From NCBI GenBank assembly GCA_965277715.1, contig OZ255836.1, positions 3,328,001 through 3,392,000 on the forward strand: a stretch of 64,000 nucleotides of DNA. The letters are read 5' to 3'. Below the pieces are notes generated by a model that searched no databases, was not told the origin of the DNA, and saw only the letters and a program-made list of their open reading frames with translations. Positions 1,845-36,751 of the stretch are shown here, in pieces. This DNA is from Gammaproteobacteria bacterium. Lineage in GTDB: Bacteria; Pseudomonadota; Gammaproteobacteria; JBCCGL01. The translations under genes were made by a program, and so were the position numbers. Position 1 is the first letter of the stretch, and the number at the start of each line of letters is the position of its first letter.

Positions 1845-1864
1845 GGGTATTCCATAAACTAAAA

Positions 1865-1887
1865 GCGGCAGCCGTTATAGCTGCCGC
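1865..1887 (-). terminator. Terminator-like hairpin just upstream of argD
   Basis: GCGGCAGC-N7-GCTGCCGC perfect 8-bp stem followed by TTTT on the minus strand. Confidence 0.45.
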
Positions 1888-2056
1888 AAAAGTAGAAATT
1901 ATAATGATCTGTTTTCAAAATGCGAGCGTGTTACCGGGTCTTGTAACAAAAAATGCGGTTTAACCTAAATTCCGCAGTTGAATCTACTGCGAGCACCTAA
2001 TGCACAGAATCCAAAGCGCTTTTACCAGCATTTCAGCTTCCTGAGCATATCTGAAA

Positions 2057-2917: not shown

Positions 2918-3061
2918 GGTATTTTATCGGCGTGTGTTTTTAGCCCATTCTAATGCGGCACCTCTTGTATAAACAACCCACAGTATGTACAACACACATT
3001 CGTGTTTATTTGTGTGTCAGTTAGTAATGGAGCTTAGGACGGATGCGGTGATATGGAGGGT

Positions 3062-4498: not shown

Positions 4499-4568
4499 AA
4501 AATAATCCGCAATGGAGCAGTCCTGAATCCGACAGGCTTCTAGACAGCCTGGGCCGGGACGGCGTTAT

Positions 4569-6203: not shown

Positions 6204-6283
6204 ATTTTTTTCTCTGGGTATTATTAATATTTTAAATTCTGTACTAAGAGTTTATAGGGCCAAAAAAAGTTCATGCGGGCAGG

Positions 6284-7435: not shown

Positions 7436-7523
7436 AGTGTCCTCATACTTTTGGAGGTGGATTGAGGCATCAATTCGGCTGAATTGAATGTGGTCGGGAT
7501 GGTATCACGCTCAAACACCCTCA

Positions 7524-7548
7524 ACCCCCTCTTTGTGAAAGAGGGGGT
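7524..7548. terminator. Hairpin downstream of the ligase gene
   Basis: ACCCCCTCTTT-GTG-AAAGAGGGGGT, 11-bp perfect stem. Confidence 0.5.
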
Positions 7549-7558
7549 GTTCACTTTC

Positions 7559-8431
7559 TTATGGTATTGGCAAAACCTTTCCAGCGTGCGTTGTATCGAT
7601 TCGCTCGCGCAAAAAACTGGCAAATCTGGGTAGGCCATTACGTGTGAGTCCATAGTATTTGTAAGTGATTATCGCGCCAACCCTGGGCGGGTTTTCACGT
7701 TGTTTATCTGTAAATCCGCTGCCGATACGAAAGTGTTTGCCGGTGGCAGTCTGCACAAGCAGCGCCCCCAATCGACCGGTATGTTTACCTTTACCCGGCA
7801 GGTGGGCAATCACCCTGGCCTCGGCATCCCGGTAGCGTTTTAGTTTAAACAATGCATCGCTGCGGCCTGTGTGATAGTGGGCATTCTGGTGGTGAAGCAT
7901 CAAGCCTTCACCGCCGTTGTCTACCAGTGTATCCAGTACCGCCATTAACGCCTTGTGACTGTCTACCCGAAACTGCTTTACTGCACGTAAATGCGGGTTA
8001 TTGGCCACCTCGACGATATGATTAATTTTTTTAATGCGATCAGAAAAATTCCCCACAGCCCCCGGCAGTTCAAATACATAATAATTAACGAACCGCCATT
8101 CATCTTCGATAGGTGCACGTTTTTTAACGGTGCTGACAGTGCGCTCGAAACTGTTTCTGTCGATCCATAATTCGCCATCGAGTGGTGTGTTGGGGAAATT
8201 CCGGGTAAACCAATCCGGTGGGTAAAAGCGGTTGCCCTGTCTGGATACCAGGAATGTCCCGTTCCAATAGGCACGCACCCCGTCGAGTTTTTCGCTCACC
8301 CAGTAATCCTGTGCATTGACACCGGGGTGAAATTTTTTAGCGTGTATCAGTTCTGGGGCCGTGTTGGCCAGTGCTGTACCCAACAGCAGGGCATTGAATA
8401 GCACAGCGATGAGGCAATCAATCCTTTTCAT
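7559..8431 (-). CDS. ATP-dependent DNA ligase, minimal LigE type with signal peptide
   Basis: SEKLDGVR (KxDG), LDGELW, EGLML, KLK motifs, OB domain; MKRIDCLIAVLFNALLLGTALA leader; start set at 8431. Confidence 0.9.
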   Translation of the reverse strand: MKRIDCLIAVLFNALLLGTALANTAPELIHAKKFHPGVNAQDYWVSEKLDGVRAYWNGTFLVSRQGNRFYPPDWFTRNFPNTPLDGELWIDRNSFERTVSTVKKRAPIEDEWRFVNYYVFELPGAVGNFSDRIKKINHIVEVANNPHLRAVKQFRVDSHKALMAVLDTLVDNGGEGLMLHHQNAHYHTGRSDALFKLKRYRDAEARVIAHLPGKGKHTGRLGALLVQTATGKHFRIGSGFTDKQRENPPRVGAIITYKYYGLTRNGLPRFASFLRERIDTTHAGKVLPIP

Positions 8432-8553
8432 AGTGCGTCCTTTGGTTCGGTTGCGTTGTGATAGACACACCATAATGCCATAGAACAATGAAAAATCCGA
8501 ATTGTTGGCTACACTCAAGAGACACTTTGTTCCGGTTGGCAAGGGGAAAGCCT

Positions 8554-9090
8554 GTGAAAGGTATTGTGTTTACATTACTTAATGAAATGGTCGAAGAACA
8601 GTTTGGGCTTGAAGCGTGGGATCAATTAATTACCCAGTCGGGATCAGACGGTCTGTATATATCAACTGAGACGTATACCGATGAAGAACTGATGCGTTTG
8701 GTGGCGACAGCCAGTGAGATGACGGGTATCGCCGTAAATGACCTTGTCCGGGCATTTGGCGCGTATATGTTTCCTCATTTTTACGCGAAATACCCGGTTT
8801 TTTTTAAACCCGATATGACGTTAAAATCTTTTCTATTAACCGTCGATAGGGTTATTCATGTCGAAGTGCGAAAACTGTACCCGGACGCTGGGCTGCCCAA
8901 TTTTGACTATAAGGATGAGAACGATAACGAGTTGACGATGATCTACAGCTCACCGAGGAAGCTGTGTGCGTTGGCGGAAGGGTTGATTGCCGGAGCGGCC
9001 AAGCACTTTGGCACGCAATACACAATGGAACACACGGTTTGTATGCACAAGGGTGATGATTGTTGCCATTTGAAAATGACTCTGGGGTAA
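8554..9090 (+). CDS. H-NOX (heme NO-binding) protein
   Basis: (M)KGIVF start at GTG, IHVEVRKLYP proximal His, YSSPR (YxSxR) motif. Confidence 0.9.
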   Translation: MKGIVFTLLNEMVEEQFGLEAWDQLITQSGSDGLYISTETYTDEELMRLVATASEMTGIAVNDLVRAFGAYMFPHFYAKYPVFFKPDMTLKSFLLTVDRVIHVEVRKLYPDAGLPNFDYKDENDNELTMIYSSPRKLCALAEGLIAGAAKHFGTQYTMEHTVCMHKGDDCCHLKMTLG

Positions 9091-9097
9091 GTGAACG

Positions 9098-10057
9098 GTG
9101 GAAATTGCTACACTACAGCGCGCTTATGAGCGGGAGAAGGCCAAGAGGGTGCAAGCGGAATCATTGTTGGAGGATAAGTCGCGTGAGCTGTTCCTTTCTT
9201 ACGAGGCGTTACAAAAATCCCACAATGAAATAAAGCAGGCTCACGAGGAATTAATACTCAAGCAGAAGCAGTTGGTTCAATCTGAAAAGATGGCCTCGCT
9301 GGGTATTATTTCAGCGGGTGTCGCCCACGAGATAAACAACCCGATTGGGTTTGTGCTGAGTAATATTGTTACGCTTGGCGAAAATGTTGCTGTATTTACT
9401 ACGCTTTGCGAAAAGCTTGGTGTGCTTATTGACAAATGCAATGCCGGAGAGACAGTGGCTGAGGCGATTAATGCGCTGGCTGCATTTTCCGAACAGGAGG
9501 ATTTGGCATTTCTTATTGAGGATGGCCAAACACTGATCGATGAAACCACAGAGGGTATTGTGCGTGTGCGCGATATTGTTGCCGGGTTAAAATCTTTTGC
9601 GCGTGTTGATACTGGGGAAAAAGAAAGTGCGAATATTAACGAATGCATCGAGTCCACGTTAAAAATACTGGGTAATCAGACAAAATATACCTGCACGGTG
9701 GAAAAACAATTAGGTGATATTCCTGTTATTCACTGTTTTCCCGGTAAGCTTAATCAGGTGTTTATGAATCTTATTGTTAATGCGGTGCACGCTGTCGGTG
9801 ATGGCGGGGTGATTCGCATTGCGTCGGTATGGGAAAATAATCAGGTGGTTATTAGGATTGCTGATAATGGTAAGGGGATTCCGGCTGAAAATATCCCCAA
9901 TCTGTTTACGCCGTTTTTTACCACTAAACCGGTTGGGGAGGGGACGGGGCTTGGGCTGTCGATATCAATGGGGATTGTTGAAGAGCATGGTGGTGCTATT
10001 GATGTTAACAGTGAGGTGGGTAAAGGTACGGTATTTACTGTAAGGCTGCCTGGTTGA
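9098..10057 (+). CDS. Soluble sensor histidine kinase (H-NOX-associated)
   Basis: AHEINNP H-box, N/G1/F/G2 boxes, no TM segment. Confidence 0.9.
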   Translation: MEIATLQRAYEREKAKRVQAESLLEDKSRELFLSYEALQKSHNEIKQAHEELILKQKQLVQSEKMASLGIISAGVAHEINNPIGFVLSNIVTLGENVAVFTTLCEKLGVLIDKCNAGETVAEAINALAAFSEQEDLAFLIEDGQTLIDETTEGIVRVRDIVAGLKSFARVDTGEKESANINECIESTLKILGNQTKYTCTVEKQLGDIPVIHCFPGKLNQVFMNLIVNAVHAVGDGGVIRIASVWENNQVVIRIADNGKGIPAENIPNLFTPFFTTKPVGEGTGLGLSISMGIVEEHGGAIDVNSEVGKGTVFTVRLPG

Positions 10058-10091
10058 TTATTTAGGGGGGCTTTCAATTATGATGTTTCAC

Positions 10092-10275
10092 CACTGCTGT
10101 CCCGTTAACTTTCATAGCAACACCATTTGATTAATATCAGGCATACCATCTTGTATTGGATCACCACGGAGTAATGTCATGAAGTTATGCCTTGGCGTCA
10201 GGCTTTGGCAGCGTTGCAGTAATCTTCCAAAGCGTGCCTCGTATAATTCGCATGGCTTGCTCTCATTTTACCCAC
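10092..10275 (-). mobile_element. Right end and deleted transposase remnant of IS4-family element C
   Basis: End CACTGCTGTCCCGTTAAC; minus frame ...PCELYEARFGRLLQRCQSLTPRHNF/MTLLRGDPIQDGMPDINQMVLL* resembles IS4 DUF4372-type transposases; inner boundary approximate. Confidence 0.7.
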
Positions 10276-10653
10276 TGATAAACCTTCACTTAATCGCTGT
10301 ACAGCGAGTGTGTTGACAGCTTGTTGGCAGGACTGATCTGCACTCATTGTTTGGTATAAAAACAGCGATAAGGTGTCTAGAGGAGGATAGCGACGCGCTC
10401 GAAAATCCGGTTGTAATTCTTCCAGCTTCGTAAGTAACTGAGAGGATGTCAGCAAGTGATAAAAACTCAATGCATCCGAGGATTGAGTTCGGCTTTTGAT
10501 GCGACGTTGAAGAATGTTGACTTTTACATTACTCTGCATGATGGCTGGTTCCTGTGGGATAAAGGGTATTTGTGTTGGCAACAAATAACCTACCATAGAA
10601 CCAGCTTTTTTTGTAATTACTTCAAATACTTACAGCTTAATGAAGTGCCATTC
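10276..10653 (-). mobile_element. Left end and N-terminal transposase fragment of IS4-family element B
   Basis: IR GAATGGCACTTCATTAAG on minus strand; MQSNVK...FRARRYPPLDTLSLFLYQTMSADQSCQQAV (ATG 10539). Confidence 0.8.
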
Positions 10654-10671
10654 TGCCTTGACCCCTTTTTT

Positions 10672-11439
10672 CTCCACACACACAATTTTATCATGCAGAC
10701 AATCCGCTTTGGTAACGGCATTAAAACAAGCAAGGCCATCCGATATCACTGTTGTACCCGGTTCAATATGCTGCTTCGCCCACGCTTCAATCGCGTCACT
10801 ACGAAATCCCTCAACAACATTTAATTTTATGCGTATAGGTTGGCTGTTGGCTGTCGTTTCAACCGCCGCTACAAATGCTGTTTTCCCTTTTGCACCGCGT
10901 CCTCTCTTGCAACCTGAATGCTCACCCCCTAAATAAGCATCATCGAGTTCAACTAATCCTGATAACGGTTTTGATTCATCACGTTCATACATCACTTGCA
11001 TGATCTTGTGCTTTATATGCCAAGCGGCTTTATAGGAAATACCTAGATGCCTGTGTAACGCCATTGCAGACAGGCCTTTTTTATCTTGGGCAATCAAATA
11101 CAGTGCTTGAAACCAACAGGTTAACGGGCGTTTTGTGGCTTGAAAAATCGTACCGGCTGTAATCGATGTTTGGTGGTGGCAGCGATAGCACTGTTGGAGC
11201 TTACGTGTGGTTAATTGACACCCTTTATTATGTCCACAATTGGAACAGATAAACCCTTGGGGTCAGCGCCAATTGTAGCGTGCTGTAAAACACTGTTCCT
11301 CTGTGCCATAGGACTCAATGAAACGACTTAAGCTAAGGCCCATTTGAAACTGTACCGTATTGCGAGACATCATAAAAACCAATTAATTCAATAGCTTGTA
11401 TTTTATCATAGAGTAAGCTTAGCTTGGGTGGTAACTAGG
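10672..11439 (-). pseudogene. IS1595-family transposase, internal stop and 3'-truncated
   Basis: ATG 11370, Zn-ribbon, VELDDAYLGG, ISDG motifs; in-frame TGA near 11265; CCTAGTTACC end at 11439; cut at the TGACCCC motif. Confidence 0.85.
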
Positions 11440-11539
11440 AAATATTATGATCGATAATTTGGAAATTTATACGATTAGAAAATGGCACGCTACATTTTCA
11501 TCTTTTAAATAGTAAATAACTAGCCTGACCCCTTTTTCC

Positions 11540-12162
11540 ATCACCCTGGCCTCGGCATCCCGGTGGCGTTTTAGCTTAAACAATGCATCGCTACGGCCTG
11601 TGTGATAGTGGGCATTCTGGTGGTGAAGCATCAAGCCTTCACCGCCGTTGTCTACCAGTGTATCCAGTATCGCCATTAACGCCTTGTGACTGTCTACCCG
11701 AAACTGCTTTACTGCACGTAAATGCGGGTTATTGGCCACCTCGACGATATGATTAATTTTTTTAATGCGATCAGAAAAATTCCCCACAGCCCCCGGCAGT
11801 TCAAATACATAATAATTAACGAACCGCCATTCATCTTCGATAGGTGCACGTTTTTTAACGGTGCTGACAGTGCGCTCGAAACTGTTTCTGTCGATCCATA
11901 ATTCGCCGTCGAGTGGTGTGTTGGGGAAATTCCGGGTAAACCAATCCGGTGGGTAAAAGCGGTTGCCCTGTCTGGATACCAGGAATGTCCCGTTCCAATA
12001 GGCACGCACCCCGTCGAGTTTTTCGCTCACCCAGTAATCCTGTGCATTGACACCGGGGTGAAATTTTTTAGCGTGTATCAGTTCTGGGGCCGTGTTGGCC
12101 AGTGCTGTACCCAACAGCAGGGCATTGAATAGCACAGCGATGAGGCAATCAATCCTTTTCAT
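11540..12162 (-). pseudogene. Second DNA ligase copy lacking the C-terminal OB domain
   Basis: Nearly identical to copy 1 up to DAEARV, then reads into the GGGGTCAGG repeat. Confidence 0.9.
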
Positions 12163-12284
12163 GGTGCGTCCTTTGGTTCGGTTGCGTTGTGATAGGCACA
12201 CCATAATGCCATAGAACAATGAAAAATCCGAATTGTTGGCTACACTCAAGAGACACTTTGTTCCGGTTGGTAAGGGGAAAGCCT

Positions 12285-12821
12285 GTGAAAGGTATTGTGT
12301 TTACATTACTTAATGAAATGGTCGAAGAACAGTTTGGGCTTGAAGCGTGGGATCAATTAATTACCCAGTCGGGATCAGACGGTCTGTATATATCAACTGA
12401 GACGTATACCGATGAAGAACTGATGCGTTTGGTGGCGACAGCCAGTGAGATGACGGGTATCGCCGTAAATGACCTTGTCCGGGCATTTGGCACGTATATG
12501 TTTCCTCATTTTTACGCGAAATACCCGGTTTTTTTTAAACCCGATATGACGTTAAAATCTTTTCTATTAACCGTCGATAGGGTTATTCATGTCGAAGTGC
12601 GAAAACTGTACCCGGACGCTGGGCTGCCCAATTTTGACTATAAGGATGAGAACGATAACGAGTTGACGATGATCTACAGCTCACCGAGGAAGCTGTGTGC
12701 GTTGGCGGAAGGGTTGATTGCCGGAGCGGCCAAGCACTTTGGCACGCAATACACAATGGAACACACGGTTTGTATGCACAAGGGTGATGATTGTTGCCAT
12801 TTGAAAATGACTCTGGGGTAA
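12285..12821 (+). CDS. H-NOX protein, copy 2
   Basis: One aa difference from copy 1 (FGAY vs FGTY). Confidence 0.9.
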   Translation: MKGIVFTLLNEMVEEQFGLEAWDQLITQSGSDGLYISTETYTDEELMRLVATASEMTGIAVNDLVRAFGTYMFPHFYAKYPVFFKPDMTLKSFLLTVDRVIHVEVRKLYPDAGLPNFDYKDENDNELTMIYSSPRKLCALAEGLIAGAAKHFGTQYTMEHTVCMHKGDDCCHLKMTLG

Positions 12822-12828
12822 GTGAACG

Positions 12829-13788
12829 GTGGAAATTGCTACACTACAGCGCGCTTATGAGCGGGAGAAGGCCAAGAGGGTGCAAGCGGAATCATTGTTG
12901 GAGGATAAGTCGCGTGAGCTGTTCCTTTCTTACGAGGCGTTACAAAAATCCCACAATGAAATAAAGCAGGCTCACGAGGAATTAATACTCAAGCAGAAGC
13001 AGTTGGTTCAATCTGAAAAGATGGCCTCGCTGGGTATTATTTCAGCGGGTGTCGCCCACGAGATAAACAACCCGATTGGGTTTGTGCTGAGTAATATTGT
13101 TACGCTTGGCGAAAATGTTGCTGTATTTACTACGCTTTGCGAAAAGCTTGGTGTGCTTATTGACAAATGCAATGCCGGAGAGACAGTGGCTGAGGCGATT
13201 AATGCGCTGGCTGCATTTTCCGAACAGGAGGATTTGGCATTTCTTATTGAGGATGGCCAAACACTGATCGATGAAACCACAGAGGGTATTGTGCGTGTGC
13301 GCGATATTGTTGCCGGGTTAAAATCTTTTGCGCGTGTTGATACCGGGGAAAAAGAAAGTGCGAATATTAACGAATGCATCGAGTCCACGTTAAAAATACT
13401 GGGTAATCAGACAAAATATACCTGCACGGTGGAAAAACAATTAGGTGATATTCCTGTTATTCACTGTTTTCCCGGTAAGCTTAATCAGGTGTTTATGAAT
13501 CTTATTGTTAATGCAGTGCACGCTGTCGGTGATGGCGGGGTGATTCGCATTGCGTCGGTATGGGAAAATAATCAGGTGGTTATTAGGATTGCTGATAATG
13601 GTAAGGGGATTCCGGCTGAAAATATCCCCAATCTGTTTACGCCGTTTTTTACCACTAAACCGGTTGGGGAGGGGACGGGGCTTGGGCTGTCGATATCAAT
13701 GGGGATTGTTGAAGAGCATGGTGGTGCTATTGATGTTAACAGTGAGGTGGGTAAAGGTACGGTATTTACTGTAAGGCTGCCTGGTTGA
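12829..13788 (+). CDS. Histidine kinase, copy 2
   Basis: Protein identical to 9098-10057. Confidence 0.9.
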   Translation: MEIATLQRAYEREKAKRVQAESLLEDKSRELFLSYEALQKSHNEIKQAHEELILKQKQLVQSEKMASLGIISAGVAHEINNPIGFVLSNIVTLGENVAVFTTLCEKLGVLIDKCNAGETVAEAINALAAFSEQEDLAFLIEDGQTLIDETTEGIVRVRDIVAGLKSFARVDTGEKESANINECIESTLKILGNQTKYTCTVEKQLGDIPVIHCFPGKLNQVFMNLIVNAVHAVGDGGVIRIASVWENNQVVIRIADNGKGIPAENIPNLFTPFFTTKPVGEGTGLGLSISMGIVEEHGGAIDVNSEVGKGTVFTVRLPG

Positions 13789-13822
13789 TTATTTAGGGGG
13801 GCTTTCAATTATGATGTTTCAC

Positions 13823-14384
13823 CACTGCTGTCCCGTTAACTTTCATAGTAACTTCATTTGATTAATATCAGGCATACCATCTTGTATTGGATCACCACGG
13901 AGTAATGCCATGAAGTTATGCCTTGGCGTCAGGCTTTGGCAGCGTTGCAGTAATCTCCCAAAGCGTGCCTCGTATAATTCGCATGGCTTGTTCTCATTTT
14001 ACCCACTGATAAACCTTCACTTAATCGCTGTACAGCGAGTGTGTTGACAGCTTGTTGGCAGGACTGATCTGCACTCATTGTTTGGTATAAAAACAGCGAT
14101 AAGGTGTCTAGAGGAGGATAGCGACGCGCTCGAAAATCCGGTTGTAATTCTTCCAGTTTCGTAAGTAACTGAGAGGATGTCAGCAAGTGATAAAAACTCA
14201 ATGCATCCGAGGATTGAGCTCGGCTTTTGATGCGACGTTGAAGAATGTTGACTTTTACATTACTCTGCATGATAGCTGGTTCCTGTGGGATAAAGGGTAT
14301 TTGTGTTGGCAATAAATAACCTACCATAGAACCAGCTTTTTTTGTAATTACTTCAAATACTTACAGCTTAAGGAAGTGCCATTC
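13823..14384 (-). mobile_element. Duplicated IS4 remnants (element C right end plus element B left end)
   Basis: Copy of 10092-10653. Confidence 0.8.
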
Positions 14385-14404
14385 AGGATTGACCCCTTTT
14401 TTCT

Positions 14405-14472
14405 TTGCCGTAAAAACGCTGTATATCCTCATTAACCCCTTGGTCTACATAGTCTGTGTAACGTTGACAGTT
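14405..14472 (-). pseudogene. About 70-bp internal fragment of the RAYT-like gene
   Basis: Reverse complement matches about 19410-19476 (TGTCAACGTTACACAGACTATGTAGACCAAGGGGTT...). Confidence 0.85.
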
Positions 14473-14475
14473 TCA

Positions 14476-14937
14476 TTACTTTGACTTGGCAACTAATACA
14501 CCAAGGCCAACAATTATTGCACCTACGATAACCCCTACCCAAAACTTGTCCACTTTTATTTTTTCTGAAATAACCTCTATTTTTTGATGTAGCAACTCAG
14601 GGGCGGAATTTATGTCTATTGCTTGGTGGTTGCCTACCCATCCGGGTAATTCTTCAGGGGTAATATCTATTAGTACTGGGATGATGTTTTTTTCTTGAAT
14701 TAGAGATGCCCCAAGTTCTTGCTGGACAGCAGCTGATTTTATTGAGCTTTTAGTTGCTAAAAAGAACACCCATTTAGCTTCATCTAAATGTTTGAATACT
14801 GCGTCAGTCCAGTTACTACCTGGCTTGATAGATATACCAGCTAAGAAAGTATCGATGCCAGCCATTGATGTCATGGTATGTAAATTTTTAGCTAGAGATT
14901 CATCTTTTACCGAATAACTAATAAATGCTGTTGCCAT
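14476..14937 (-). CDS. TIR-domain protein with C-terminal membrane helix (cassette gene)
   Basis: AFISYS...PGSNW...SAAVQQELG; hydrophobic tail FWVGVIVGAIIVGLGVLVA. Confidence 0.85.
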   Translation of the reverse strand: MATAFISYSVKDESLAKNLHTMTSMAGIDTFLAGISIKPGSNWTDAVFKHLDEAKWVFFLATKSSIKSAAVQQELGASLIQEKNIIPVLIDITPEELPGWVGNHQAIDINSAPELLHQKIEVISEKIKVDKFWVGVIVGAIIVGLGVLVAKSK

Positions 14938-14962
14938 GTGATGCCCTTATTTTGTTGAAGAA

Positions 14963-15010
14963 ATATAACGCTGCGTTCACCGGCTTGTCCGGTGCAACGC
15001 CTTGTTATAC
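14963..15010 (-). other. attC site (short)
   Basis: Minus strand GTATAAC-AAGGCGTTGCACCGGACAAGCCGGTGAACGCAGC-GTTATAT, imperfect palindrome right after the HEPN stop. Confidence 0.8.
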
Positions 15011-15012
15011 TA

Positions 15013-15519
15013 TTATCTGGTCATGGTCTCAGCAAGACAATGGATTACCTCTTTTCCATCCTCATAAGCCTGAACCACCTCTCTGTATGTGGTAATTGAA
15101 TTGATTTTCCCTTCATGAGCAAAGTCGTTTCGCCAAGTGATTAAATTCGCATATGAGTTTGCTAAGTCTCTCTTATTTGTAACCAAGTAGGATTTAGAGG
15201 CCTTACCGAGTTTTCTCTTAAACCTTTTTTGATACTTATCGCCAAACTTTGAGATATATTCATCACGGATGACGTTTATTTTTATTTTCCCATTTATCCT
15301 ATGAAAATATGCTTCTGTAAAGTTGCCCAGCACCTTGTGCTTTCTTTGTGAAAAATTAATAAATATTTCTTTTACTGCTTGTTCATATACAGTAACAGCA
15401 GCGACTGACACAAAGCCTACATATTTGGCTTGCAATAGCGAGTCAGTAATGGATGGCATTACTGTATCAAGGTGCGTAATGACATCATCAGCATGCTGAA
15501 AATGATCTACGTAACTCAT
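15013..15519 (-). CDS. HEPN-domain protein (putative RNase)
   Basis: RNDFAH (Rx4H) motif; abuts the DUF262 gene. Confidence 0.8.
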   Translation of the reverse strand: MSYVDHFQHADDVITHLDTVMPSITDSLLQAKYVGFVSVAAVTVYEQAVKEIFINFSQRKHKVLGNFTEAYFHRINGKIKINVIRDEYISKFGDKYQKRFKRKLGKASKSYLVTNKRDLANSYANLITWRNDFAHEGKINSITTYREVVQAYEDGKEVIHCLAETMTR

Positions 15520-16605
15520 TTAGCCACCAAATAAAACGCATTTAACACGTTTCGTTCTGCTACTAACTGTTTTAATATCTGTAGTATTCACGCTTGTATC
15601 TTCTAAAAATTTTTCATCAACAATAAGTTTATTAAATCTTTCTGAAAGACTGAATTTAGATAGTTTGGAGTGGTTTTCAATCATTACAGACATAACAGAA
15701 TCCAAAGCAGAAATGTTAATTGGACCTCTTAAATTGAATGGTTTTTCTCCTAACTCAGAAATTATTTGCTCCGTGACTTCAGGAAATATCTTTAGAAAAT
15801 TAACCACTTTTTTAGTATTACCGCCTTGATGCTTCTTCATTGCCTTATTGAGATATTCTTTCATCGGCTTTTCGTATCCACCTTGTGAGCCAACAAGAGA
15901 AAATATCCTTAACAAAAGTTCGACATCTTTTTGGTGTTTATCTAGATTTTTCCTACCCAGGATCAAACGCCAGTTTGGATCTCTATTAGCTTCTTTTAAT
16001 AGACTGCTAAATTTACCTCGGAACACGCAGTTGCGAATCTCTTGAGGTTTTAACGGAGTTCCGCCAGTATTCAACCTTTCAAATATATGATAAGCACTGG
16101 TGCTCTCTCCAATCGGATTGAGCTGCCTAATATTAATGGCTCGCAATACTGCTTGTTTCAACTTCCTTTGGTCTGACTCACCCAAGTCTTCAAATTTTTT
16201 ACCATTGTAAGGATTGCCATCGCCAAGCCCTGAGAGTCTAAAAACCTGCCGTTTACCATGTGTACTTTCTTTTCCAAAGTATCCTTCCATAAAAAAAACG
16301 ATACTTAAAATCCTCTGCTGTCCATCAATAACAGAATTCATACTATTCTCGTCAATGTAGAAAAATACAGGCGGTACAGGTAGTCCGGCTAAAAAGGAAT
16401 CTACTAAAAGAGATGATTGCTTTATTCCCCAGACAAACTCGCGTTGGTAGTCCGGAATTTCAATATCTCCATCTTTCCACATCTGAGCAATACCGGATAA
16501 TGTATAGTCTGATGGGTAGCTTGCAATATCGTATTGAACCGTAACCGCATCCTCATCTTCTTCCACTTCGGTAGCTACGTCATCTTCCGCGAATTTTAAA
16601 TTCAT
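15520..16605 (-). CDS. DUF262 (ParB-like/GmrS-like) domain protein
   Basis: PDYQREFVW, IDGQQR, FERLNTGG motifs. Confidence 0.88.
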   Translation of the reverse strand: MNLKFAEDDVATEVEEDEDAVTVQYDIASYPSDYTLSGIAQMWKDGDIEIPDYQREFVWGIKQSSLLVDSFLAGLPVPPVFFYIDENSMNSVIDGQQRILSIVFFMEGYFGKESTHGKRQVFRLSGLGDGNPYNGKKFEDLGESDQRKLKQAVLRAINIRQLNPIGESTSAYHIFERLNTGGTPLKPQEIRNCVFRGKFSSLLKEANRDPNWRLILGRKNLDKHQKDVELLLRIFSLVGSQGGYEKPMKEYLNKAMKKHQGGNTKKVVNFLKIFPEVTEQIISELGEKPFNLRGPINISALDSVMSVMIENHSKLSKFSLSERFNKLIVDEKFLEDTSVNTTDIKTVSSRTKRVKCVLFGG

Positions 16606-16645
16606 ATATATAACTTATTAAAAAAATTTCTTAATCGAACCGTAA

Positions 16646-16707
16646 GCATAACGCCTACCATCAGCGGCGCGCACCTTTGGCGCGTCCGCTGGATGGTTTT
16701 GTTAGGG
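16646..16707 (-). other. attC site
   Basis: Minus strand CCCTAAC-AAAACCATCCAGCGGACGCGCC...GCGCGCCGCTGATGGTAGGC-GTTATGC. Confidence 0.88.
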
Positions 16708-18065
16708 CCTGATTTCAACTGCAAGAACACCACCATCAACTCGAGACGTGACTTGGCCGACATTTGGATTAGCATGGCTTATTGCTAGCGACTCTACCAA
16801 TTTGCTGCCTTTCATCTTGTTGACTTGAACGGAGTATCTTTCTTTCGGTTGATGTAATCCAGGTGGTGTGGCTAGGTTAAAAGAAAACGAAAGTTCTCCT
16901 GGGATGCCATTTTTTGAAACTTGGACAGGGCTAGTGTTTGTGTTTGGTAGGACTCTTTTCTTATTAGCGTTATATTGTAATTTAGCCAGCCTCTGCCCTT
17001 ACAACCTAACCAGGTTTTAAACGGGCCCCGGATGGCGCCACAACCACCAACCTTACCTCTCGCTAATACACAACGATTTCCGCTTGGTACCGTACCTTCA
17101 AAAGCAGAATGGCAGCTTTCGCCGGTTACTGAGACATCTGCTCTGATCAATGTTCCAGGGCCACTAATACACCATTCGCGGTCTACCCTATAGCTATCAT
17201 CACATATGCTACTTCCAGTATTTGCAAAAGGCTGTACTGGCTCTGCTACCTCTCTAAATGCTGTGTGCTCTACATGAGTAGAACCTGAAAGCTCATAGCG
17301 AAAAGGGGGTTCAAGAACAGTCAAACCAATTGGGCTTGAGCTAGCTGTGGCTGTATTTTCATGGCAACCGAGAACCCCCCATAACCACAAAGAACGGCTT
17401 ATTTCTTCAAGATTATCTACTTTAACGCTAACAATAACGTCGTTTTGATCTGCGGATTCCACTACAGATTTCGATATCTCAACAGATATTGCTGAGTCAA
17501 GGCGTTCAATAATTCTTGCCTCTATACCATTGACCAAAACCTTTAGGTTTTCTCCTTGGCGTAAAAAATTACCTTTTAGTGTTAATTTAGGAATGTCTTG
17601 GCCCACTTGTAATGTTGGAGGAAAGGAAGCAACAACTCTCGGCTTAGAATCTCTGCAAGGTAACGAATAACTTGTGTTGTATGCCAATATGTCCGCATCG
17701 ACTATAGTTGTTCTTGCTTCTTCACCAGCTTTCGCAATTATTTTCTGAGTTGCGACTTTCATGGTTCGAGTTAACTCTTGAGCATCTTCTACTAGCCTTA
17801 ATTCTGCCCCTTCGAGTTTATCTACAGTGTATTCCAGTTTGTGACCTAGCATTCTGTCAATGTCAGCTAGTACATTTTGCGCATTAGCCTGTAATGAGTT
17901 TCCTATGCTTTGAATGTCTTCGGTTCCTTCGTACATTGCTTCTCGAAATGACTCTATAAATCCTTCCAAAGTACTTTTTATAGCTAGAATAGTCAGAGGT
18001 TCCGCGGATACGGTATTTGAAGCCATTAATGTAATAGCGCAGATAAATAGACGTAATTTTTTCAT
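16702..18065 (-). pseudogene. Secreted hypothetical cassette protein with a frameshift near 16945
   Basis: Signal peptide; track ORF stops at 16872 but an alternative frame runs ...TNTSPVQVSKNGIPGE...VLAVEIRP* to the TAA in the attC core. Confidence 0.7.
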
Positions 18066-18339
18066 TTGATCATTTCTACTTTGGTTTTTTTATTACCCTA
18101 ACAGTATTTTACAAAGGCCAAAGACCTCTGTAACATTATTATGAGGTGACCTCTTAATTCTTCCCAAGTATTGAGAAATTTTTGTAAGTGGCTGATTCAT
18201 ATCACTATATTTTTCTCATTTTGATACTAAAAACAATACAGAAGTCTTTGATATTTAGTATTATTGTTTTTTAGCTACAGTTAGAGTAGCAGAAAATTTC
18301 AGGGGCAGCCAATTTTAATTAATTTTTTTAATTCTTAAC

Positions 18340-18490
18340 CTTGAAAGCGATGGTATCGACTACGCTATTGCTGGTGACTATGCTGTAGCGTTACACGGGG
18401 TTATCCGTGGCACGATTTCGGCAGGCGTTGGCAAACCATGATCAGAATATCGAGGACATAAAGACCTTACGTTTGCTGAAAGAAGACGAT
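18340..18490 (+). pseudogene. Nucleotidyltransferase-like gene remnant
   Basis: ESDGIDYAIAGDYAVALHGVIRGT fragment and ...QNIEDIK... tail. Confidence 0.45.
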
Positions 18491-18510
18491 GAAAACAAAA
18501 AGAACAAAAA

Positions 18511-18850
18511 GGGGTCAATCGTATTTAATATTTTTCAAACGGTTGCAAACCTGCTCAAACACGCCCTTCAAGCCGCCGTCTGACAGCCCACTCTTTACAT
18601 AATCAATTGCAGGAGAAAGGCTACTAACACGACTATATCCAAACATATCAACCAGCGTTTTTAACGGCATATCCCCCAATTGCTGACAACAATATATCGC
18701 TACTTTACGAGGCAGATTCGCCCGTTGTCTCCCCCGCTGTCGCGTAAGTACATCACTCGCGTTAACGCCAAACACCGCTGCCACTGCATCGACTATAGCT
18801 GCACCCTTTGGCTTGTTCGTCACAATATGGGACAAGTCCCCCGATATGTG
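18511..18850 (-). pseudogene. C-terminal part of a second, divergent RAYT-like transposase with its terminal repeat
   Basis: RANLPRKVAIYCCQQLGDMPLK homologous to the 19.6-19.8 kb region; stop codon inside ATTGACCCC. Confidence 0.8.
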
Positions 18851-18855
18851 GAAAA

Positions 18856-19882
18856 GGGGTCAGGCTAGTTATTTATCATAGATTATGTCAATATCACCCC
18901 ATGCCAAGACCTCACCGCATAGAATATGAAAACGCCTTCTACCATATAATAAACCGTGGTCGGGAGCGTAAGACGGTTTTTCATAGCGAAGCTTACTACC
19001 AAGCGTTTCTCGCCACATTGACCGAAGCCGCAGAGCGTTTTCACGCCGTGATTCACGCTTATTGCCTAATGGGCAATCACTACCACCTACTGCTGGAAAC
19101 ACCTGATGCTAACCTCAGTCGCATTATGCAGCATATCGATGGTGTCTATACACAGCGTTATAACCGCCTTAAAAAAACGGATGGTTCTCAGTTTAGAGGG
19201 CGATTTAAAGCCATCAATGTCGATGAAGATGCGTATCTATTACCCCTGTCTCGCTATATACATAGAAACCCCATTGAGACTAAACGACCTCTGGTTCAAT
19301 CGCTAAAGAACTATTCCTGGTCTAGTTACCCGGCTTACATAGGAAAAGCATTGAGCCCTACTTGGTTGTGTCGTGATCGTGTTTATGCCTGTTTACCGGT
19401 GAAAAACGACTGTCAACGTTACACAGACTATGTAGACCAAGGGGTTGATGAGGATATACAGCGCTTTTACGGCAAAAATAACCTATCGACGGTGTTAGGT
19501 GACAAGGTGTTCCGCTCACAGTTGGCCGAGTACAAAGAAAGCCAGAGTGGCGTTGATGTGCGGCCCCAATTGCGGGAAAAGGTAGCCAGCAGTGTGATAG
19601 TAAAAACGGTGGCAAATTGTTGCCGAGTGAGTGAAGGCAGTGTTTCGGGTAGTCAAGGTAAGGGGGGTAGCGCGAACATTCCCCGCAAATTGGCCATGTA
19701 CTACTGCCAGCGGTTTGGTGATATGTCGTTAAAGGCGATTACTCAACATTTTGGGTTAAGTCACCCTGGTGGTGTGTCGAGTGCAATAGCTCACGTCAAG
19801 AAGGCGCTGGACAAGGGAGAACTTAAAGAGGTGATGCATCAAATTGAAAATCAGTTGAATAGTAAATAACTTGCCTGACCCC
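18856..19882 (+). mobile_element. Inverted-repeat-bounded RAYT-like element
   Basis: GGGGTCAGGCTAGTTATTTA ... TAAATAACTTGCCTGACCCC (19/20 inverted match). Confidence 0.9.
18901..19869 (+). CDS. HUH Y1 transposase (RAYT/TnpA-REP-like) with C-terminal DnaA_C-like HTH
   Basis: MPRPHR...YHIINRG, YCLMGNHYHLL (HUH), RYIHRNP (catalytic Tyr), WSSY. Confidence 0.92.
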   Translation: MPRPHRIEYENAFYHIINRGRERKTVFHSEAYYQAFLATLTEAAERFHAVIHAYCLMGNHYHLLLETPDANLSRIMQHIDGVYTQRYNRLKKTDGSQFRGRFKAINVDEDAYLLPLSRYIHRNPIETKRPLVQSLKNYSWSSYPAYIGKALSPTWLCRDRVYACLPVKNDCQRYTDYVDQGVDEDIQRFYGKNNLSTVLGDKVFRSQLAEYKESQSGVDVRPQLREKVASSVIVKTVANCCRVSEGSVSGSQGKGGSANIPRKLAMYYCQRFGDMSLKAITQHFGLSHPGGVSSAIAHVKKALDKGELKEVMHQIENQLNSK

Positions 19883-19905
19883 TTTCTTAGCGGGTCAATA
19901 TATGA

Positions 19906-21596
19906 CCCCTTTCTTTCGGACACCCTGCAATTACAACTCGTCAGCTAACAAGCCTATTTTAGCGGGCGCTTCAAACAAAATATTAATATCAAAATTACAG
20001 ACCATCAATGCACCACACTGACTTTGCCTGATCGGCAAGCCATGTCTGATGATTCTCCAGGTTCGCTATATTCCAGCCGTCGTACTCAGCTATTTTCTGG
20101 TTAATCACAAACGGGCTTTTCGCAAGCATTGCTTTCTTTTGTATAAAAGATTCTTGGGCCATATTATCGCTCTTCGATAAAATCGCCATATTGCCCAGTC
20201 GGTCAATTGCGTCGTTATAATTCTCTTCGCCAAATGCTTCCTGCCAATCATCATTGGGTCGATAGGGCAACACATGCTCTAGTGTTAAGCTGACAGGAGA
20301 TTGGTAACCCTCGGATAATTTCTCTTCTATCCGGCATAATAAAAACACGATTTTTTTACTGCTTTGACGGCTCGGCATAGTTTTTTGCTTAAAAGCATTT
20401 TTAAATTCTTTATCCGATGGATAAATCGATTTAAGAAATTGCTTCACTTCATCAAAAGAAATTTCAGGCAATATGAAAATTTTATTCGCCAGTTTATTAT
20501 AAATGCTCTCTTGTTCACCCGCCGATTTATTGCAAATAATATTATACCGAACAGAAATAACCGTAATCCAACGCAGCAACTTGATGAAATCTTTTACTGA
20601 ATAATTACGATAAGCGACCATAAGCACACTCAATGGTGTTTTAATATTGAAAGTATTTAATAACTCTAGATAAGGTTTGGCCTCAGTGTATTGGCCACCT
20701 TCATATTCAAGCCAAAATCCATCCTGGTGGTTTTGTAAAGCTGCGTAAACTGGTGCATTCTTCTTAATCTCATAGATGTAAGGCATGACTTTATCAAAAG
20801 CATTAATTTTCTTTTTCACAATTCGATATAGATCTTTTTTATACGGCAAAGAATCACTAATACCTATATGGCTTCTCAAAAAATTAGTGAAATCTGTGGC
20901 ACCTAATTGACCCAAAATATCACCCCAATGCCGTTCAAATATTCCAAAATTATTTTCTGTCATTTGAGAACCCGTTGACAGAGTGGATAAAAAATAGTTT
21001 TTTAGCAAATCAGGCGCTGATAAATGCATACCACGTGCATTCAAAGTTTCAAAGACAAGGTAAGCATTTAAGTCATCTTTAACTGTAATTGTAGTGAACA
21101 TTAAACCATCAGTGATATTATTAATTAGCTTCGCCACTTCCTCGCCACTTTTAAAAGCACGCATCTTCTTTTGAAAAAAATCGAACGTTTTATTAAGCTT
21201 TCTATTAGTCCTTGTGATGCCTCTTTTTCTGGGCACACCATACTGATCTAACATATCGATAAAATGCGGGTTATTGTGGCGGTTCAACTCTAATTTTGAA
21301 GAGGTTTGTAATGTTACCGTATCGAGTAAACCGAGATAGGTTTGGTGATAAGTAACCATTCTCTTGTCATTGCGCTCGCTATCTTCACCTTGCTCGATCA
21401 TTTTTTTAAACACGTCGAGTGCCGACAGAATCAACAGCAAAATAGTCGTCAGCCTTTGTTGCCCATCAATGATTTCAAAACGTTTGTTGTCGTCAGATTG
21501 AAAAACCAAATAACCCATAAAATGCTGAATCTGTGCTTCCAGCATTTGCTCAACATCCTGCCAAAACTCTTCCAGTTGAGGTTCTTCCCAAGAGTA
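19906..21596. repeat. Copy 1 of a 1691-bp duplication (5'-truncated GmrSD-like gene)
   Basis: Matches 21909-23599 at offset 2003; bracketed by TGACCCC and GGGGTCAGG. Confidence 0.95.
19995..21596 (-). pseudogene. GmrSD-like DUF262/DUF1524 gene lacking its first ~32 codons
   Basis: VPPFQRD motif lost at the repeat junction. Confidence 0.85.
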
Positions 21597-21601
21597 GCAA
21601 A

Positions 21602-21692
21602 GGGGTCAGGCTTATTATTCACCATACAACGACTAATACGGATAAAAACAGTGATTTCCAGCAAGAAGTATAGGAAATAACTGCATTGACCC
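21602..21692. repeat. Miniature non-coding element with RAYT-type ends
   Basis: GGGGTCAGGCTTATTATT...AAATAACTGCATTGACCC. Confidence 0.7.
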
Positions 21693-21900
21693 GAATGGCA
21701 CTTCCTTAAGACGTAAGCAACTGATAGTAAAGAGTTTATTTATTATTTCTAAGAAAAAAAATGATATTTTGAAAGTTGCCGCCAATGATAACCGGGATAG
21801 TTTTACAAATATTGCTTTCAAGAACCATATGCCAAGTTATCTGAACCAAGCATGTAGTACCAATACTTTCAAATACTTACAGCTTAAGGAAGTGCCATTC
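21693..21900. mobile_element. MITE of IS4 element B (208 bp)
   Basis: TIR GAATGGCACTTCCTTAAG at both ends; inverted copy at 54759-54967. Confidence 0.9.
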
Positions 21901-21997
21901 TTGCCTGCCCCCTTTCTTTCGGACACCCTGCAATTACAACTCGTCAGCTAACAAGCCTATTTTAGCGGGCGCTTCAAACAAAATATTAATATCGAAA

Positions 21998-23695
21998 TTA
22001 CAGACCATCAATGCACCACACTGACTTTGCCTGATCGGCAAGCCATGTCTGATGATTCTCCAGGTTCGCTATATTCCAGTCGTCGTACTCAGCTATTTTC
22101 TGGTTAATCACAAACGGGCTTTTCGCAAGCATTGCTTTCTTTTGTATAAAAGATTCTTGGGCCATATTATCGCTCTTCGATAAAATCGCCATATTGCCCA
22201 GTCGGTCAATTGCGTCGCTATAATTCTCTTCGCCAAATGCTTCCTGCCAATCATCATTGGGTAGATAGGGCAACACATGCTCTAGTGTTAAGCTGACAGG
22301 AGATTGGTAACCCTCGGATAATTTCTCTTCTATCCGGCATAATAAAAACACGATTTTTTTACTACTTTGACGGCTCGGCATAGTTTTTTGCTTAAAAGCA
22401 TTTTTAAATTCTTTATCCGATGGATAAATCGATTTAAGAAATTGCTTCACTTCATCAAAAGAAATTTTAGGCAATATGAAAATTTTATTCGCCAGTTTAT
22501 TATAAATGCTCTCTTGTTCACCCGCCGATTTATTGCAAATAATATTATACCGAACAGAAATAACCGTAATCCAACGCAGCAACTTGATGAAATCTTTTAC
22601 TGAATAATTATGATAAGCGACCATAAGCACACTCAATGGTGTTTTAATATTGAAAGTATTTAATAACTCTAGATAAGGTTTGGCCTCAGTGTATTGGCCG
22701 CATTCATATTCAAGCCAAAATCTATCCTGGTGGTTTTGTAAAGCTGCGTAAACTGGTGCATTCTTCTTAATCTCATAGATGTAAGGCATGACTTTATCAA
22801 AAGCATTAATTTTCTTTTTCACAATTCGATATAGATCTTTTTTATACGGCAAAGAATCACTAGTACCTATATGGCTTCTCAAAAAATTAGTGAAATCTGT
22901 GGCACCTAATTGACCCAAAATATCACCCCAATGCCGTTCAAATATTTCAAAATCATTTTCTGTCATTTGAGAACCCGTTGACAGAGTGGATAAAAAATAG
23001 TTTTTTAGCAAATCAGGCGCTGATAAATGCATACCACGTGCATTCAAAGTTTCAAAGACAAGGTAAGCATTTAAGTCATCTTTAACTGTAATTGTAGTGA
23101 ACATTAAACCATCAGTGATATTATTAATTAGCTTCGCCACTTCCTCGCCACTTTTAAAAGCACGCATCTTCTTTTGAAAAAAATCGAACGTTTTATTAAG
23201 CTTTCTATTAGTCCTTGTGATGCCTCTTTTTCTGGGCACACGATACTGATATAACATATCGGCAAAATGCGGGTTATTGTGGCGGTTCAACTCTAATTTT
23301 GAAGAGGTTTGTAATGTTACCGTATCAAGTAAACCGAGATAGGTTTGGTGATAAGTAACCATTCTCTTTTCATTGCGCTCGCTATCTTCACCTTGCTTGA
23401 TCATTTTTTTAAACACGTCGAGTGCCGACAGAATCAACAGCAAAATAGTCGTCAGCCTTTGTTGCCCATCAATGATTTCAAAACGTTTGTTGTCGTCAGA
23501 TTGAAAAACCAAATAACCCATAAAATGCTGAATCTGTGCTTCCAGCATTTGCTCAACATCCTGCCAAAACTCTTCCAGTTGAGGTTCTTCCCAAGAGTAA
23601 TCTCGTTGAAAAGGCGGCACTCGATAACTTTTACCGTTGCTCATCACCTCGGCAAATGTTTTATTTTCTGGTTCTAAATAAATTTTTTTGAACAT
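21998..23695 (-). CDS. GmrSD-like DUF262 + DUF1524 (HNH) protein, putative type IV restriction
   Basis: VPPFQRDYSW, IIDGQQRLTT, FETLNARG, LEHVLP...RLGNMAIL...N. Confidence 0.9.
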   Translation of the reverse strand: MFKKIYLEPENKTFAEVMSNGKSYRVPPFQRDYSWEEPQLEEFWQDVEQMLEAQIQHFMGYLVFQSDDNKRFEIIDGQQRLTTILLLILSALDVFKKMIKQGEDSERNEKRMVTYHQTYLGLLDTVTLQTSSKLELNRHNNPHFADMLYQYRVPRKRGITRTNRKLNKTFDFFQKKMRAFKSGEEVAKLINNITDGLMFTTITVKDDLNAYLVFETLNARGMHLSAPDLLKNYFLSTLSTGSQMTENDFEIFERHWGDILGQLGATDFTNFLRSHIGTSDSLPYKKDLYRIVKKKINAFDKVMPYIYEIKKNAPVYAALQNHQDRFWLEYECGQYTEAKPYLELLNTFNIKTPLSVLMVAYHNYSVKDFIKLLRWITVISVRYNIICNKSAGEQESIYNKLANKIFILPKISFDEVKQFLKSIYPSDKEFKNAFKQKTMPSRQSSKKIVFLLCRIEEKLSEGYQSPVSLTLEHVLPYLPNDDWQEAFGEENYSDAIDRLGNMAILSKSDNMAQESFIQKKAMLAKSPFVINQKIAEYDDWNIANLENHQTWLADQAKSVWCIDGL

Positions 23696-34973: not shown

Positions 34974-34989
34974 CGGCCAGCAGCCCTCT

Positions 34990-35889: not shown

Positions 35890-35905
35890 TTACCGGGCGC
35901 CTGCT

Positions 35906-36664: not shown

Positions 36665-36751
36665 TTAGGTGGTGAGATCGATTGGTTTAGGGAGTGTACA
36701 GGGCGCTGGCAACCTGGAAAAAACTGGCTGCCAGCGCGTTGATACACAAAA

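Follow-up and report, generated by a model that had tools for sequence, protein, structure and literature searches.

We analysed a 64,000-nt stretch of a gammaproteobacterial genome (contig OZ255836.1; henceforth the window, numbered from its first base) and found in it an intact transposon-like element, copy A (18856-19882, plus strand), in which a gene for a 322-residue Y1 HUH nuclease (18901-19869, plus strand) lies between terminal inverted repeats (TIRs) at 18856-18875 and 19863-19882. Judged by sequence and predicted fold, the element is a member of an already described class: RAYT-like genes (RAYT, tyrosine transposase associated with REPs; a REP is a repetitive extragenic palindrome) contained within long TIRs have been named TIRYTs, and the whole units TIRtrons (Di Nocera 2013, PMC3733652). 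We consider it probable that this intact TIRtron behaves as a multicopy transposon and that insertion of an IS4-family insertion sequence (IS) into its ends adds further copies of its terminal motif. In the portions of the class literature drawn on here, many TIRtron TIRs carry the motif GGGGWSAS (PMC3733652), TIR copies are also found solo, as dimers and in clusters (PMC3733652, PMC6006769), and 20 of the 26 TIRYTs of Di Nocera fall in subclass 2.1, within which subgroup 2.1.2 has a C-terminal Bac_DnaA_C-like domain (Quentin 2018, PMC6006769). The initial annotation, made from the sequence alone, had pointed to GGGGWC-type repeats near some RAYT subclasses; these have been published as the TIRYT/TIRtron repeats, with the consensus GGGGWSAS.

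The TIRYT protein joins the HUH nuclease to a helix-turn-helix (HTH) domain resembling DnaA domain IV (about residues 225-320). Residues 11-123 match Pfam Y1_Tnp (E-value 4e-14), and in an alignment of the protein with 22 homologues (23 sequences) H60, Y61, H62, Y119, I120, H121, N123 and P124 were invariant, with the catalytic tyrosine, Y119, sitting in RYIHRNP. The protein therefore has the HUH motif and catalytic tyrosine of a RAYT-like Y1 HUH protein, as TIRYTs do, while its score with the IS200 model NF033573 (26.1 bits, cut-off 55) does not place it in IS200/IS605. A profile built from the 23-sequence family matched DnaA domain IV chains with an E-value of 8e-15; in the alignment, the recognition region of the HTH is conserved within the family and unlike that of DnaA. 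The AlphaFold (AF2) model of the 322-residue protein had a predicted local distance difference test score (pLDDT) of 87, and its top Foldseek match in the PDB was 4er8, the E. coli RAYT-REP complex (E-value 1.7e-7, TM-score, TMt, 0.77), followed at ranks 2-26 by the TnpA proteins of ISDra2 and IS608. The fold of its C-terminus matches DNA-bound DnaA domain IV (3pvp, 1j1v; TMt 0.77-0.80), and the C-terminal Bac_DnaA_C-like extension of Quentin's subclass 2.1.2 is thus recovered by Pfam, by the family profile and by fold.

Both ends of copy A carry GGGGTCAG, which conforms to GGGGWSAS, and its two 20-nt inverted repeats agree at 19 of 20 positions, with a single difference. The distance from the first G of the left repeat (G1) to the ATG is 45 nt. 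The gene is flanked by these TIRs and not by REP hairpins, as expected of a TIRYT/TIRtron, and comparison of the flanks of copy A and of the two related copies B and C described below revealed no direct repeat, in keeping with the lack of target duplication in IS200/IS605. The core of the initial annotation, an intact Y1 HUH gene with an extra C-terminal HTH between 20-bp inverted repeats and no target duplication, is accordingly upheld by Pfam, by the repeats and by the flanks. At three junctions, the cut target is separated from G1 by a few bases that form purine/A-runs foreign to the target (GAAAA where copy A adjoins copy E, TTTTTCC on the plus strand at a truncated ligase gene, and GCAAA at a truncated GmrSD gene), and because of these runs the true TIRYT ends probably extend 5-7 nt beyond GGGG; in copy A, the extensions 18851-18855 and 19883-19888 probably belong to the ends. 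Close to copy A, at 19892-19909, lies an 18-nt palindrome made of two facing termini (GGGTCA-ATATA-TGACCCC), of which a second copy occupies 49961-49978. As single-stranded DNA (ssDNA), these palindromes fold far better than shuffled sequence (z -5.5). Rfam gave no match within the 64-kb window.

The architecture recurs across the protein family. In reference genomes, tblastn confirmed 558 relatives of the protein, the best 80 of which were retained as loci; the closest is 56% identical, the host species lying outside the reference set. An inverted-repeat pair initiated by GGGGTCA flanks the gene in 41 of these best 80 loci, in many taxa, the 39 misses including loci that end at contig ends or that have the heptamer on one side only within the search span. 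The left repeat begins 43-51 nt upstream of the start codon in 25 of the 41. Among the 36 TIR pairs with full flanks, positions 1-7 read GGGGTCA in every case, and over positions 8-28 left and right agree with an identity of 0.58-0.97 within an element compared with 0.26-0.67 between elements; the agreement falls to background at position 29 inward and at -3 outward. This profile defines a TIR of about 28 bp that is element-specific inside and has an invariant outer heptamer. Positions -1 and -2 are A in about three quarters of ends, irrespective of the element. The protein family is large, with at least 6654 clusters at an E-value of 1e-30 or better (8000 scored), and nearly all of the 120 clusters listed carry Y1_Tnp and Bac_DnaA_C, the named ones being called transposase or RayT.

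Two candidate features of the ends were tried and dropped on this family-wide view. A DnaA-box rule was suggested by TTATTCAC, which is present in the right end of the B-type copies and in a miniature inverted-repeat transposable element (MITE) and matches TT[AT]TNCACA at 8 of 9 positions; the 36-pair profile has no conserved box at the corresponding positions. Likewise, TTAY adjoins all four B-type right ends and was considered as an IS608-like target, but the family-wide flank is mostly (T)AA at both ends, so TTAY is more likely part of the end itself. Elsewhere, two full-length TIRYT copies in genome G002 are only 67% alike in their DNA and allow no element borders to be derived. At about 1469-1512 of a locus in another genome (L132, G118), three tandem GGGGTCAG-type motifs lie within 45 nt, a cluster resembling the TIR-repeat clusters in the description by Di Nocera et al. 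A metagenome scan with an 18-nt TIR pattern returned 22 loci (L086-L107), none of them encoding a TIRYT relative; in these contigs the 18-nt string GGGGTCAGGC.AGTTATT is often preceded by TT and followed by a T-run, and the loci may represent another element family or chance.

The element is multicopy, with several intact masters and non-autonomous derivatives that share its ends. In the 90%-identity cluster of the copy A protein, five distinct intact 322-residue variants, 97-98% alike, are encoded on one 4.29-Mb contig; a further variant from a 1.8-kb contig and a 135-residue fragment belong to the same cluster. Given five paralogues and TIRs, the element departs from the RAYT pattern of REP hairpins and about one copy per genome; the initial annotation was right in identifying a RAYT-like element between inverted repeats, whereas the single copy typical of RAYTs gives way to five intact paralogues. 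In the window, copy A alone is intact. Copies B (48944-49903, minus strand) and C (53017-53976, minus strand) are defective; they have in common a deletion of about 60 bp in the HUH domain and two frameshifts, yet their flanks differ directly outside both termini. By BLAST they are 81-82% identical to copy A in DNA and 95-97% identical to each other over the repeats listed. Copy D (54968-55493, minus strand) is also defective, through a 500-bp internal deletion corresponding to 19041-19541 of A. Copy E (18511-18850, minus strand) consists of the 3' 340 bp of a diverged TIRYT, with a 106-residue DnaA_C-only open reading frame (ORF) and its own terminus at 18511, and its homology ends at 18850, where copy A begins. 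Beside the E terminus, at 18330-18500, we noted a frameshifted remnant of a small gene that by eye is nucleotidyltransferase- or AbiEii-like.

Three subfamilies (A, B and E) therefore coexist within 64 kb, accompanied by smaller pieces. Fragment B' (48696-48940, minus strand), the right-end 245 bp of a B-type copy, is cut by copy B at about A-coordinate 19474; a B-type TIRYT is represented at 51559-51663 (minus strand) by a solo left end and its first 18-21 codons, an A-type copy by a right-end remnant at 11505-11532 (plus strand), and there is an internal fragment at 14404-14471 (minus strand) that is 97% identical to A 19409-19476 and whose cut adjoins a TIRYT-like terminus. An 88-bp TIR-bounded MITE of the family (21602-21689, plus strand) abuts the N-terminally truncated first copy of a GmrSD gene (GmrSD-1, cut at 21596). 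The non-autonomous derivatives thus comprise the B-type deletion copies, a 190-bp-deletion copy seen in sequencing runs, the 88-bp MITE and the 18-nt palindromes. The cluster search returned no protein of 60-98% identity, so no intact B-type gene is on record; over 20 nt the left ends of the B type and of A are identical, and B-type copies may plausibly have been moved in trans by an A-type enzyme. At 48670-48700 we also observed a 16-bp tandem duplication that takes in outer flank together with the initial 9 nt of a B-type right end, with ATCTTATGGGGTCA present twice.

Public sequencing runs point to insertion at independent sites. Sampled words of 14476-22000 were present at 81-85% in three runs of one study and at 29-32% in four runs labelled sponge metagenome, and run contigs break at the element borders. 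In run X1, the summed contig depth was 1185-3388 over 18364-19887 and 261 over the unique stretch 14554-17855, so that the element stands at about 4-13 times its unique flank, a ratio of summed contigs and not a copy number. The adjacent 18110-18363 stands at 4-5 times unique depth in the same run and is hence also repeated. A joint of 19283 to 19474, corresponding to a 190-bp deletion, was found in X3, X5 and X8, and in X8 the deleted element sits between other flanks on a 3438-nt contig. In X3 and X5, the left flanks of the MITE at 21602 differ from that in the window. Since E sequence continues past 18850 in contigs of X1, X3 and X5, full E-type copies exist, and this continuation, together with the other flanks of the deleted element and of the MITE, supports independent insertion sites. 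Some run joints have short sides (23-29 nt) and were used as hints only. In X5, depth is zero over 14401-18099, and 14400 is joined to 18099/18100 on two contigs (29 nt on the shorter side): this 3.7-kb block is a strain-variable defence block with its left edge at a TIRYT-type terminus. The block holds a gene for a protein with the TIR domain, a HEPN (RiboL-PSP) gene, a GmrSD_N gene and a gene for a 397-residue secreted-looking protein.

The terminal motif is strongly enriched in the window. We counted 12 occurrences of GGGGTCAGG where 0.24 were expected, 26 of GGGGTCA where 5.5 were expected, and, allowing up to 3 mismatches, 12 copies of the 20-mer where 0.01 were expected, all of the latter within 11513-21621 or 48696-55493. 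Housekeeping blocks, which we delimited from a Pfam scan as 1-7558, 34227-46152 and 55662-64000, contain no full repeat (20-mer, up to 3 mismatches); of the 26 heptamers 6 fall there, together with one 9-mer (43498-43506, within dxs), about the level of chance. The nearest comparison genome, G266, the sole genome of its order, has a Dxs 78% identical and is too distant for breakpoint work; this TIRYT is absent from it (best match 33% identity), and GGGGTCAGGC occurs there 13 times in 4.4 Mb against 6 for the control. The claim that a core motif recurs about 20 times in the accessory regions alone therefore holds for the enrichment and for the absence of full copies from housekeeping DNA; as a count of one thing it does not, since the roughly 20 copies are partly genuine TIRYT termini, partly target duplications of IS4 and partly 18-nt palindromes. 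The local proliferation that had been proposed for the element was not borne out.

The second source of motif copies is an IS4-family clade. IS4-B (49979-51536, plus strand) encodes a 483-residue transposase (50073-51524) that scored 205.6 bits with NF033592 (cut-off 115), and it is inserted in the palindrome, with a 12-bp target duplication, ATATATGACCCC, at 49967-49978 and 51538-51549. A truncated IS4-family copy (10089-10665, minus strand), whose inverted repeat (IR) ends at 10653, is followed by a 12-nt target half, GGGGTCAAGGCA, and is duplicated at 13820-14396; orf132 (10198-10596, and its duplicate) is its IS4 N-terminus. The 3' fragment of a second IS4-type copy (51667-52137, plus strand), 42% identical to IS4-B residues 350-475, ends in the IR and is cut at a TIRYT left end. 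Two MITEs of about 210 bp derive from this clade, and their 37-nt IRs are the same as in the IS4-type copies. One (54759-54967) lies within the right end of copy D, 12 nt in, and is flanked by an 11-bp target duplication, GGGTCAGGCCA, at 54748-54758 and 54968-54978, the whole spanning 54748-54978. The other (21690-21900) is followed by a 12-nt A-type right-end remnant (21901-21912), the two together spanning 21690-21912; its flanks, GGGGCAGGCAA and GGGTCAATGCA, do not match, and it is probably a recombinant of two MITE copies that lay in different TIRYT ends. As 54747-54984 is 95% identical in reverse to 21676-21912, the repeated unit at 54747 that had been taken for an attC is this IS4-derived MITE with its 37-nt IRs and 11-bp direct repeat, and the attC was rejected.

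In the window, a GGG-type motif lies outward of all nine IR ends of IS4 type, at a fixed distance, beginning 12-13 nt from the IR core, (G)AATGGCACT.A.TTAAG, or abutting the core in inverse orientation. Accordingly, 9 of the 13 window matches to AATGGCAC continue as IS4 IR, and a repeat of about 45 nt (10621-10665, 14352-14396, 21868-21912 and 54747-54791) is composed of 12 nt of GGGGTCA type plus the IS4 IR. Two of the three complete IS4-clade elements in the window have 11-12-bp target duplications starting GGG[TA]. Published IS4-family elements make target duplications of about 10 bp (De Palmenaer 2008, as far as the account used here extends), near the 11-12 bp found in the window. Outside it, the clade is present in 7 of 300 sampled gammaproteobacterial genomes. 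Three copies in G002 (L082-L084) have 11-bp duplications starting GGGT, as do, with GGGT or GGGA, four of five further copies with both ends visible in the 300-genome sample (L110, L111, L113 and L114); the flanks of the fifth, L109, are inverted and not direct, and two loci that ended at contig ends were excluded. Thus 7 of 8 complete copies outside the window, in five genomes, follow the rule of an 11-bp duplication starting GGG[TA]. The clade looks like a sequence-specific IS of the kind that targets REPs, for which IS1397, ISKpn1, ISPpu9, ISPa11 and the IS4-family ISRm22 are named in the text consulted (Tobes and Pareja 2006, PMC1525189). A brief literature search found no published description of the IR or target of this IS4 clade.

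The association of the motif with junctions is real. At eight of the 13 listed cut ends, a motif copy is no more than 10 nt away: ligase copy 2 (11540), an IS1595 fragment (10672), copy E (18850), GmrSD-1 (21596), B' (48940), the TIRYT 5' fragment (51559), the IS4 C-terminal fragment (about 51667) and the 14404 fragment at its left cut. No motif copy is that near to the right cut of that fragment (14471), to the truncated IS4 at its inner cut (about 10089-10198), to an hsdS fragment (25463), to an integron-integrase fragment (47745-48092) or to an IS4 remnant at 33.3-33.9 kb. Five of the junction motif copies (10665, 14396, 21912, 51549 and 54747) are IS4 target halves, and about half of the motifs at junctions are part of the IS4-family element, which is unrelated to the TIRYT, or were duplicated by it. 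The initial annotation had listed cut points that agree with ours for the ligase, IS1595, the second RAYT, GmrSD and IS4 (about 51667); three others fall away, since no cut gene was found at 53980, 48680 lies outside any gene, just past an attC-like site recognised by eye, and the attC at 54747 is the MITE described above.

Two partial duplications begin beside termini. The 3' part of GmrSD is present at 19903-21596 and 21906-23599 (1694 bp, 98.8% identical), the first copy lacking the N-terminus; the copies begin TGACCCC or TGCCCCC, and 5 nt separate the end of the short one from the MITE terminus at 21602. A 2865-bp duplication (11540-14404 and 7809-10673, 99.1% identical) contains a partial gene for an ATP-dependent DNA ligase, genes for an H-NOX protein and a histidine kinase, and the truncated IS4 copy. 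Its two copies are separated by the IS1595 fragment and the TIRYT right-end remnant at 11505-11532, after which come TTTTTCC and, 7 nt after the remnant, the copy beginning at 11540 with the 3'-truncated ligase copy 2. In addition, three breaks lie no more than about 10 nt from A-coordinate 19474, those of B', of the 14404 fragment and of the 190-bp deletion joint; this coordinate is an A/T-run beside a GTTATTT string that resembles the inner TIR.

In the reading that we prefer, a multicopy TIRtron whose ends are also IS4 targets, the HTH would dock the enzyme on the TIR, and the HUH/Tyr centre would cut a single strand at the TIR's outer edge, at G1 or a few bases outside it, in the purine/A-run. 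The element would then move by way of a single-stranded intermediate without target duplication, as IS200/IS605 and RAYT enzymes act on ssDNA. Once single-stranded, the two TIRs, or the halves of a MITE or palindrome, could pair like REPIN arms, and such pairing would account for the matching of left and right ends without local hairpins. Motif copies at junctions would then have three origins: insertion of TIRYT copies into genes and into each other; the IS4 IS and its MITE, inserting at GGG(G)WCA-N5 in the outer 11-12 bp of TIRYT ends and duplicating them; and recombination among repeats, which would have removed one side of most insertions.

Several results weigh against this reading. Among the run contigs we saw none that skips exactly 18856-19882, and neither a transposition event nor an empty site nor an excision product. 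Since the window holds no simple two-sided insertion, the exact ends and the missing target duplication rest on comparison of flanks. The ends of copy A fold no better than shuffled sequence (z +0.8 to -1.4), and without hairpins the single-strand, hairpin-guided mechanism is taken from the fold of the enzyme and not from the DNA. The C-terminal part of the protein reached 30.1 bits with Pfam Bac_DnaA_C (E-value 5e-7), narrowly missing the cut-off of 31.5, and the NCBIfam RAYT model NF047646 gave 59.6 bits against a cut-off of 80, short of a RAYT sensu stricto. Lastly, exact IS4 target 10-mers beside RAYT/TIRYT genes gave 0 matches in five other genomes, so that homing of the IS4 clade on TIRYT ends is seen in the window only, and elsewhere the clade shows a preference for sites of GGG[TA]CA type.

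The initial annotation had the TIRYT enzyme making one-ended events that delete or duplicate neighbouring DNA, a diversifier of defence and cassette loci; in such events an element end would be joined to a new site, or the reaction would continue into the DNA alongside. It is true that both partial duplications (GmrSD and ligase/H-NOX/kinase) begin at a terminus, that a motif copy lies close to most of the listed truncation points, that three independent breaks gather near A-coordinate 19474 and that the X5 joint puts the left edge of the missing block at a terminus. We nonetheless regard this as unlikely: the five junction termini named above are IS4 target duplications and not free TIRYT ends, the non-matching flanks of the 21.7-kb MITE fit recombination between two MITE copies, recombining copies of any high-copy IS leave truncated genes at their ends, no new one-ended product was present among the run-contig joints, and the A/T-run at 19474 may simply be favoured for insertion or prone to slippage. 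The one-ended deletions and duplications were a supposition, and nested insertion with recombination between repeats explains the junctions equally well. We give no greater credence to a bolder variant, in which TIRYT ends would be active break-and-join sites that copy and delete adjacent DNA and the IS4 clade would have evolved to home on the termini. Here a single end would be joined to A/T-run targets, including a pseudo-end within the TIRYT gene itself near A-coordinate 19474, and this would yield the GmrSD and ligase/H-NOX/kinase duplications as well as the presence or absence of the TIR/HEPN/GmrSD_N block.

A more conservative account, that the gene is a stationary, domesticated RAYT-type host gene, GGGGTCA a maintained REP-like element and the copies products of segmental duplication, seems to us quite improbable. 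Five distinct intact paralogues on one contig, the differing flanks directly outside the termini of copies B and C, the deletion derivatives and MITE with other flanks in other runs, and the presence of subfamilies A, B and E together within 64 kb all speak against it, even though RAYTs are described, in the part of the source cited, as housekeeping-like genes of about one copy per genome (Bertels 2017), the 18-nt palindromes resemble REP hairpins and only copy A is intact in the window. Less credible still is movement of the GGGGTCA ends by another enzyme, such as the IS4-family DDE transposase, with the Y1 gene as a passenger. The finding that 9 of 9 IS4-type ends adjoin the motif would suit this idea, but at complete IS4 copies the motif is a direct repeat, that is a target duplication, and not an inverted repeat (L109 being the sole exception); TIRYT copies lack target duplications, whereas IS4-family elements make them at about 10 bp; and GGGGTCA TIR pairs stand at a fixed distance from the Y1 gene in the 41 loci of many taxa, whereas the IS4 clade is confined to 7 of the 300 sampled genomes.

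One further feature lies near the B-type copies. The fragment at 47745-48092 is the N-terminal part of an integron integrase (TIGR02249, E-value 2.5e-25, below the cut-off) and is followed by a small ORF and by the attC-like site at about 48570-48635, recognised by eye. The ends of this site resemble RYYYAAC and GTTRRRY, which we take to be attC-type motifs. Lying between radC and coaBC, the region resembles an integron in decay.

Elements of the TIRYT/TIRtron class abound, and in the portions of the literature consulted neither the movement of a TIRYT nor the use of terminal inverted repeats by a Y1 HUH enzyme is demonstrated. The intact masters, deletion copies, MITE and minimal palindromes described here, which have the same ends, form a natural set of substrates with which the question becomes directly testable. 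They also call for caution in breakpoint mapping, where a different IS that duplicates a short terminal motif can inflate its count. Were the break-and-join account with IS4 homing true, the two would form a two-layer transposon ecology that reshapes defence islands.

Set beside known systems, the window element is closest to the TIRtrons, in which, going by the published passages used here, a RAYT-like Y1 HUH protein longer than RAYTs bears a C-terminal HTH of Bac_DnaA_C type and the gene lies between TIRs sharing GGGGWSAS, here GGGGTCAG. Published TIRtrons are described in these passages mainly as single genes, with TIR families of at most moderate abundance and without mobility data; what appears new relative to them is a multicopy TIRtron with at least five intact paralogues, copies that share lesions, an 88-bp MITE and an IS that inserts into its ends. 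RAYT/TnpA-REP (4er8) is the best structural match, with the HUH and Tyr motifs in common and, in both, short palindromic derivatives and a short conserved tag at the repeat's outer edge, GGGGTCA in the window and, in the portion consulted of Di Nocera 2013 (PMC3733652), GTAG in RAYTs; but the window element has no flanking GTAG-tagged REP hairpins, carries 28-bp TIRs, is multicopy and has the extra HTH domain. With the IS200/IS605 enzymes (IS608 and ISDra2 TnpA) it shares the Y1 HUH fold and the absence of target duplication; those elements have subterminal hairpins and no TIRs, in the account used (Quentin 2018, PMC6006769), whereas the window element has TIRs, no hairpin above shuffled sequence and no TnpB gene. 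Finally, the IS4 clade resembles the REP-targeting ISs, in the described cases of which all copies sit in one kind of short repeat (PMC1525189); unlike theirs, its target here is the terminus of another transposon or a palindrome derived from it, and its 11-12-bp duplication starts at the first G's of GGGGTCA.

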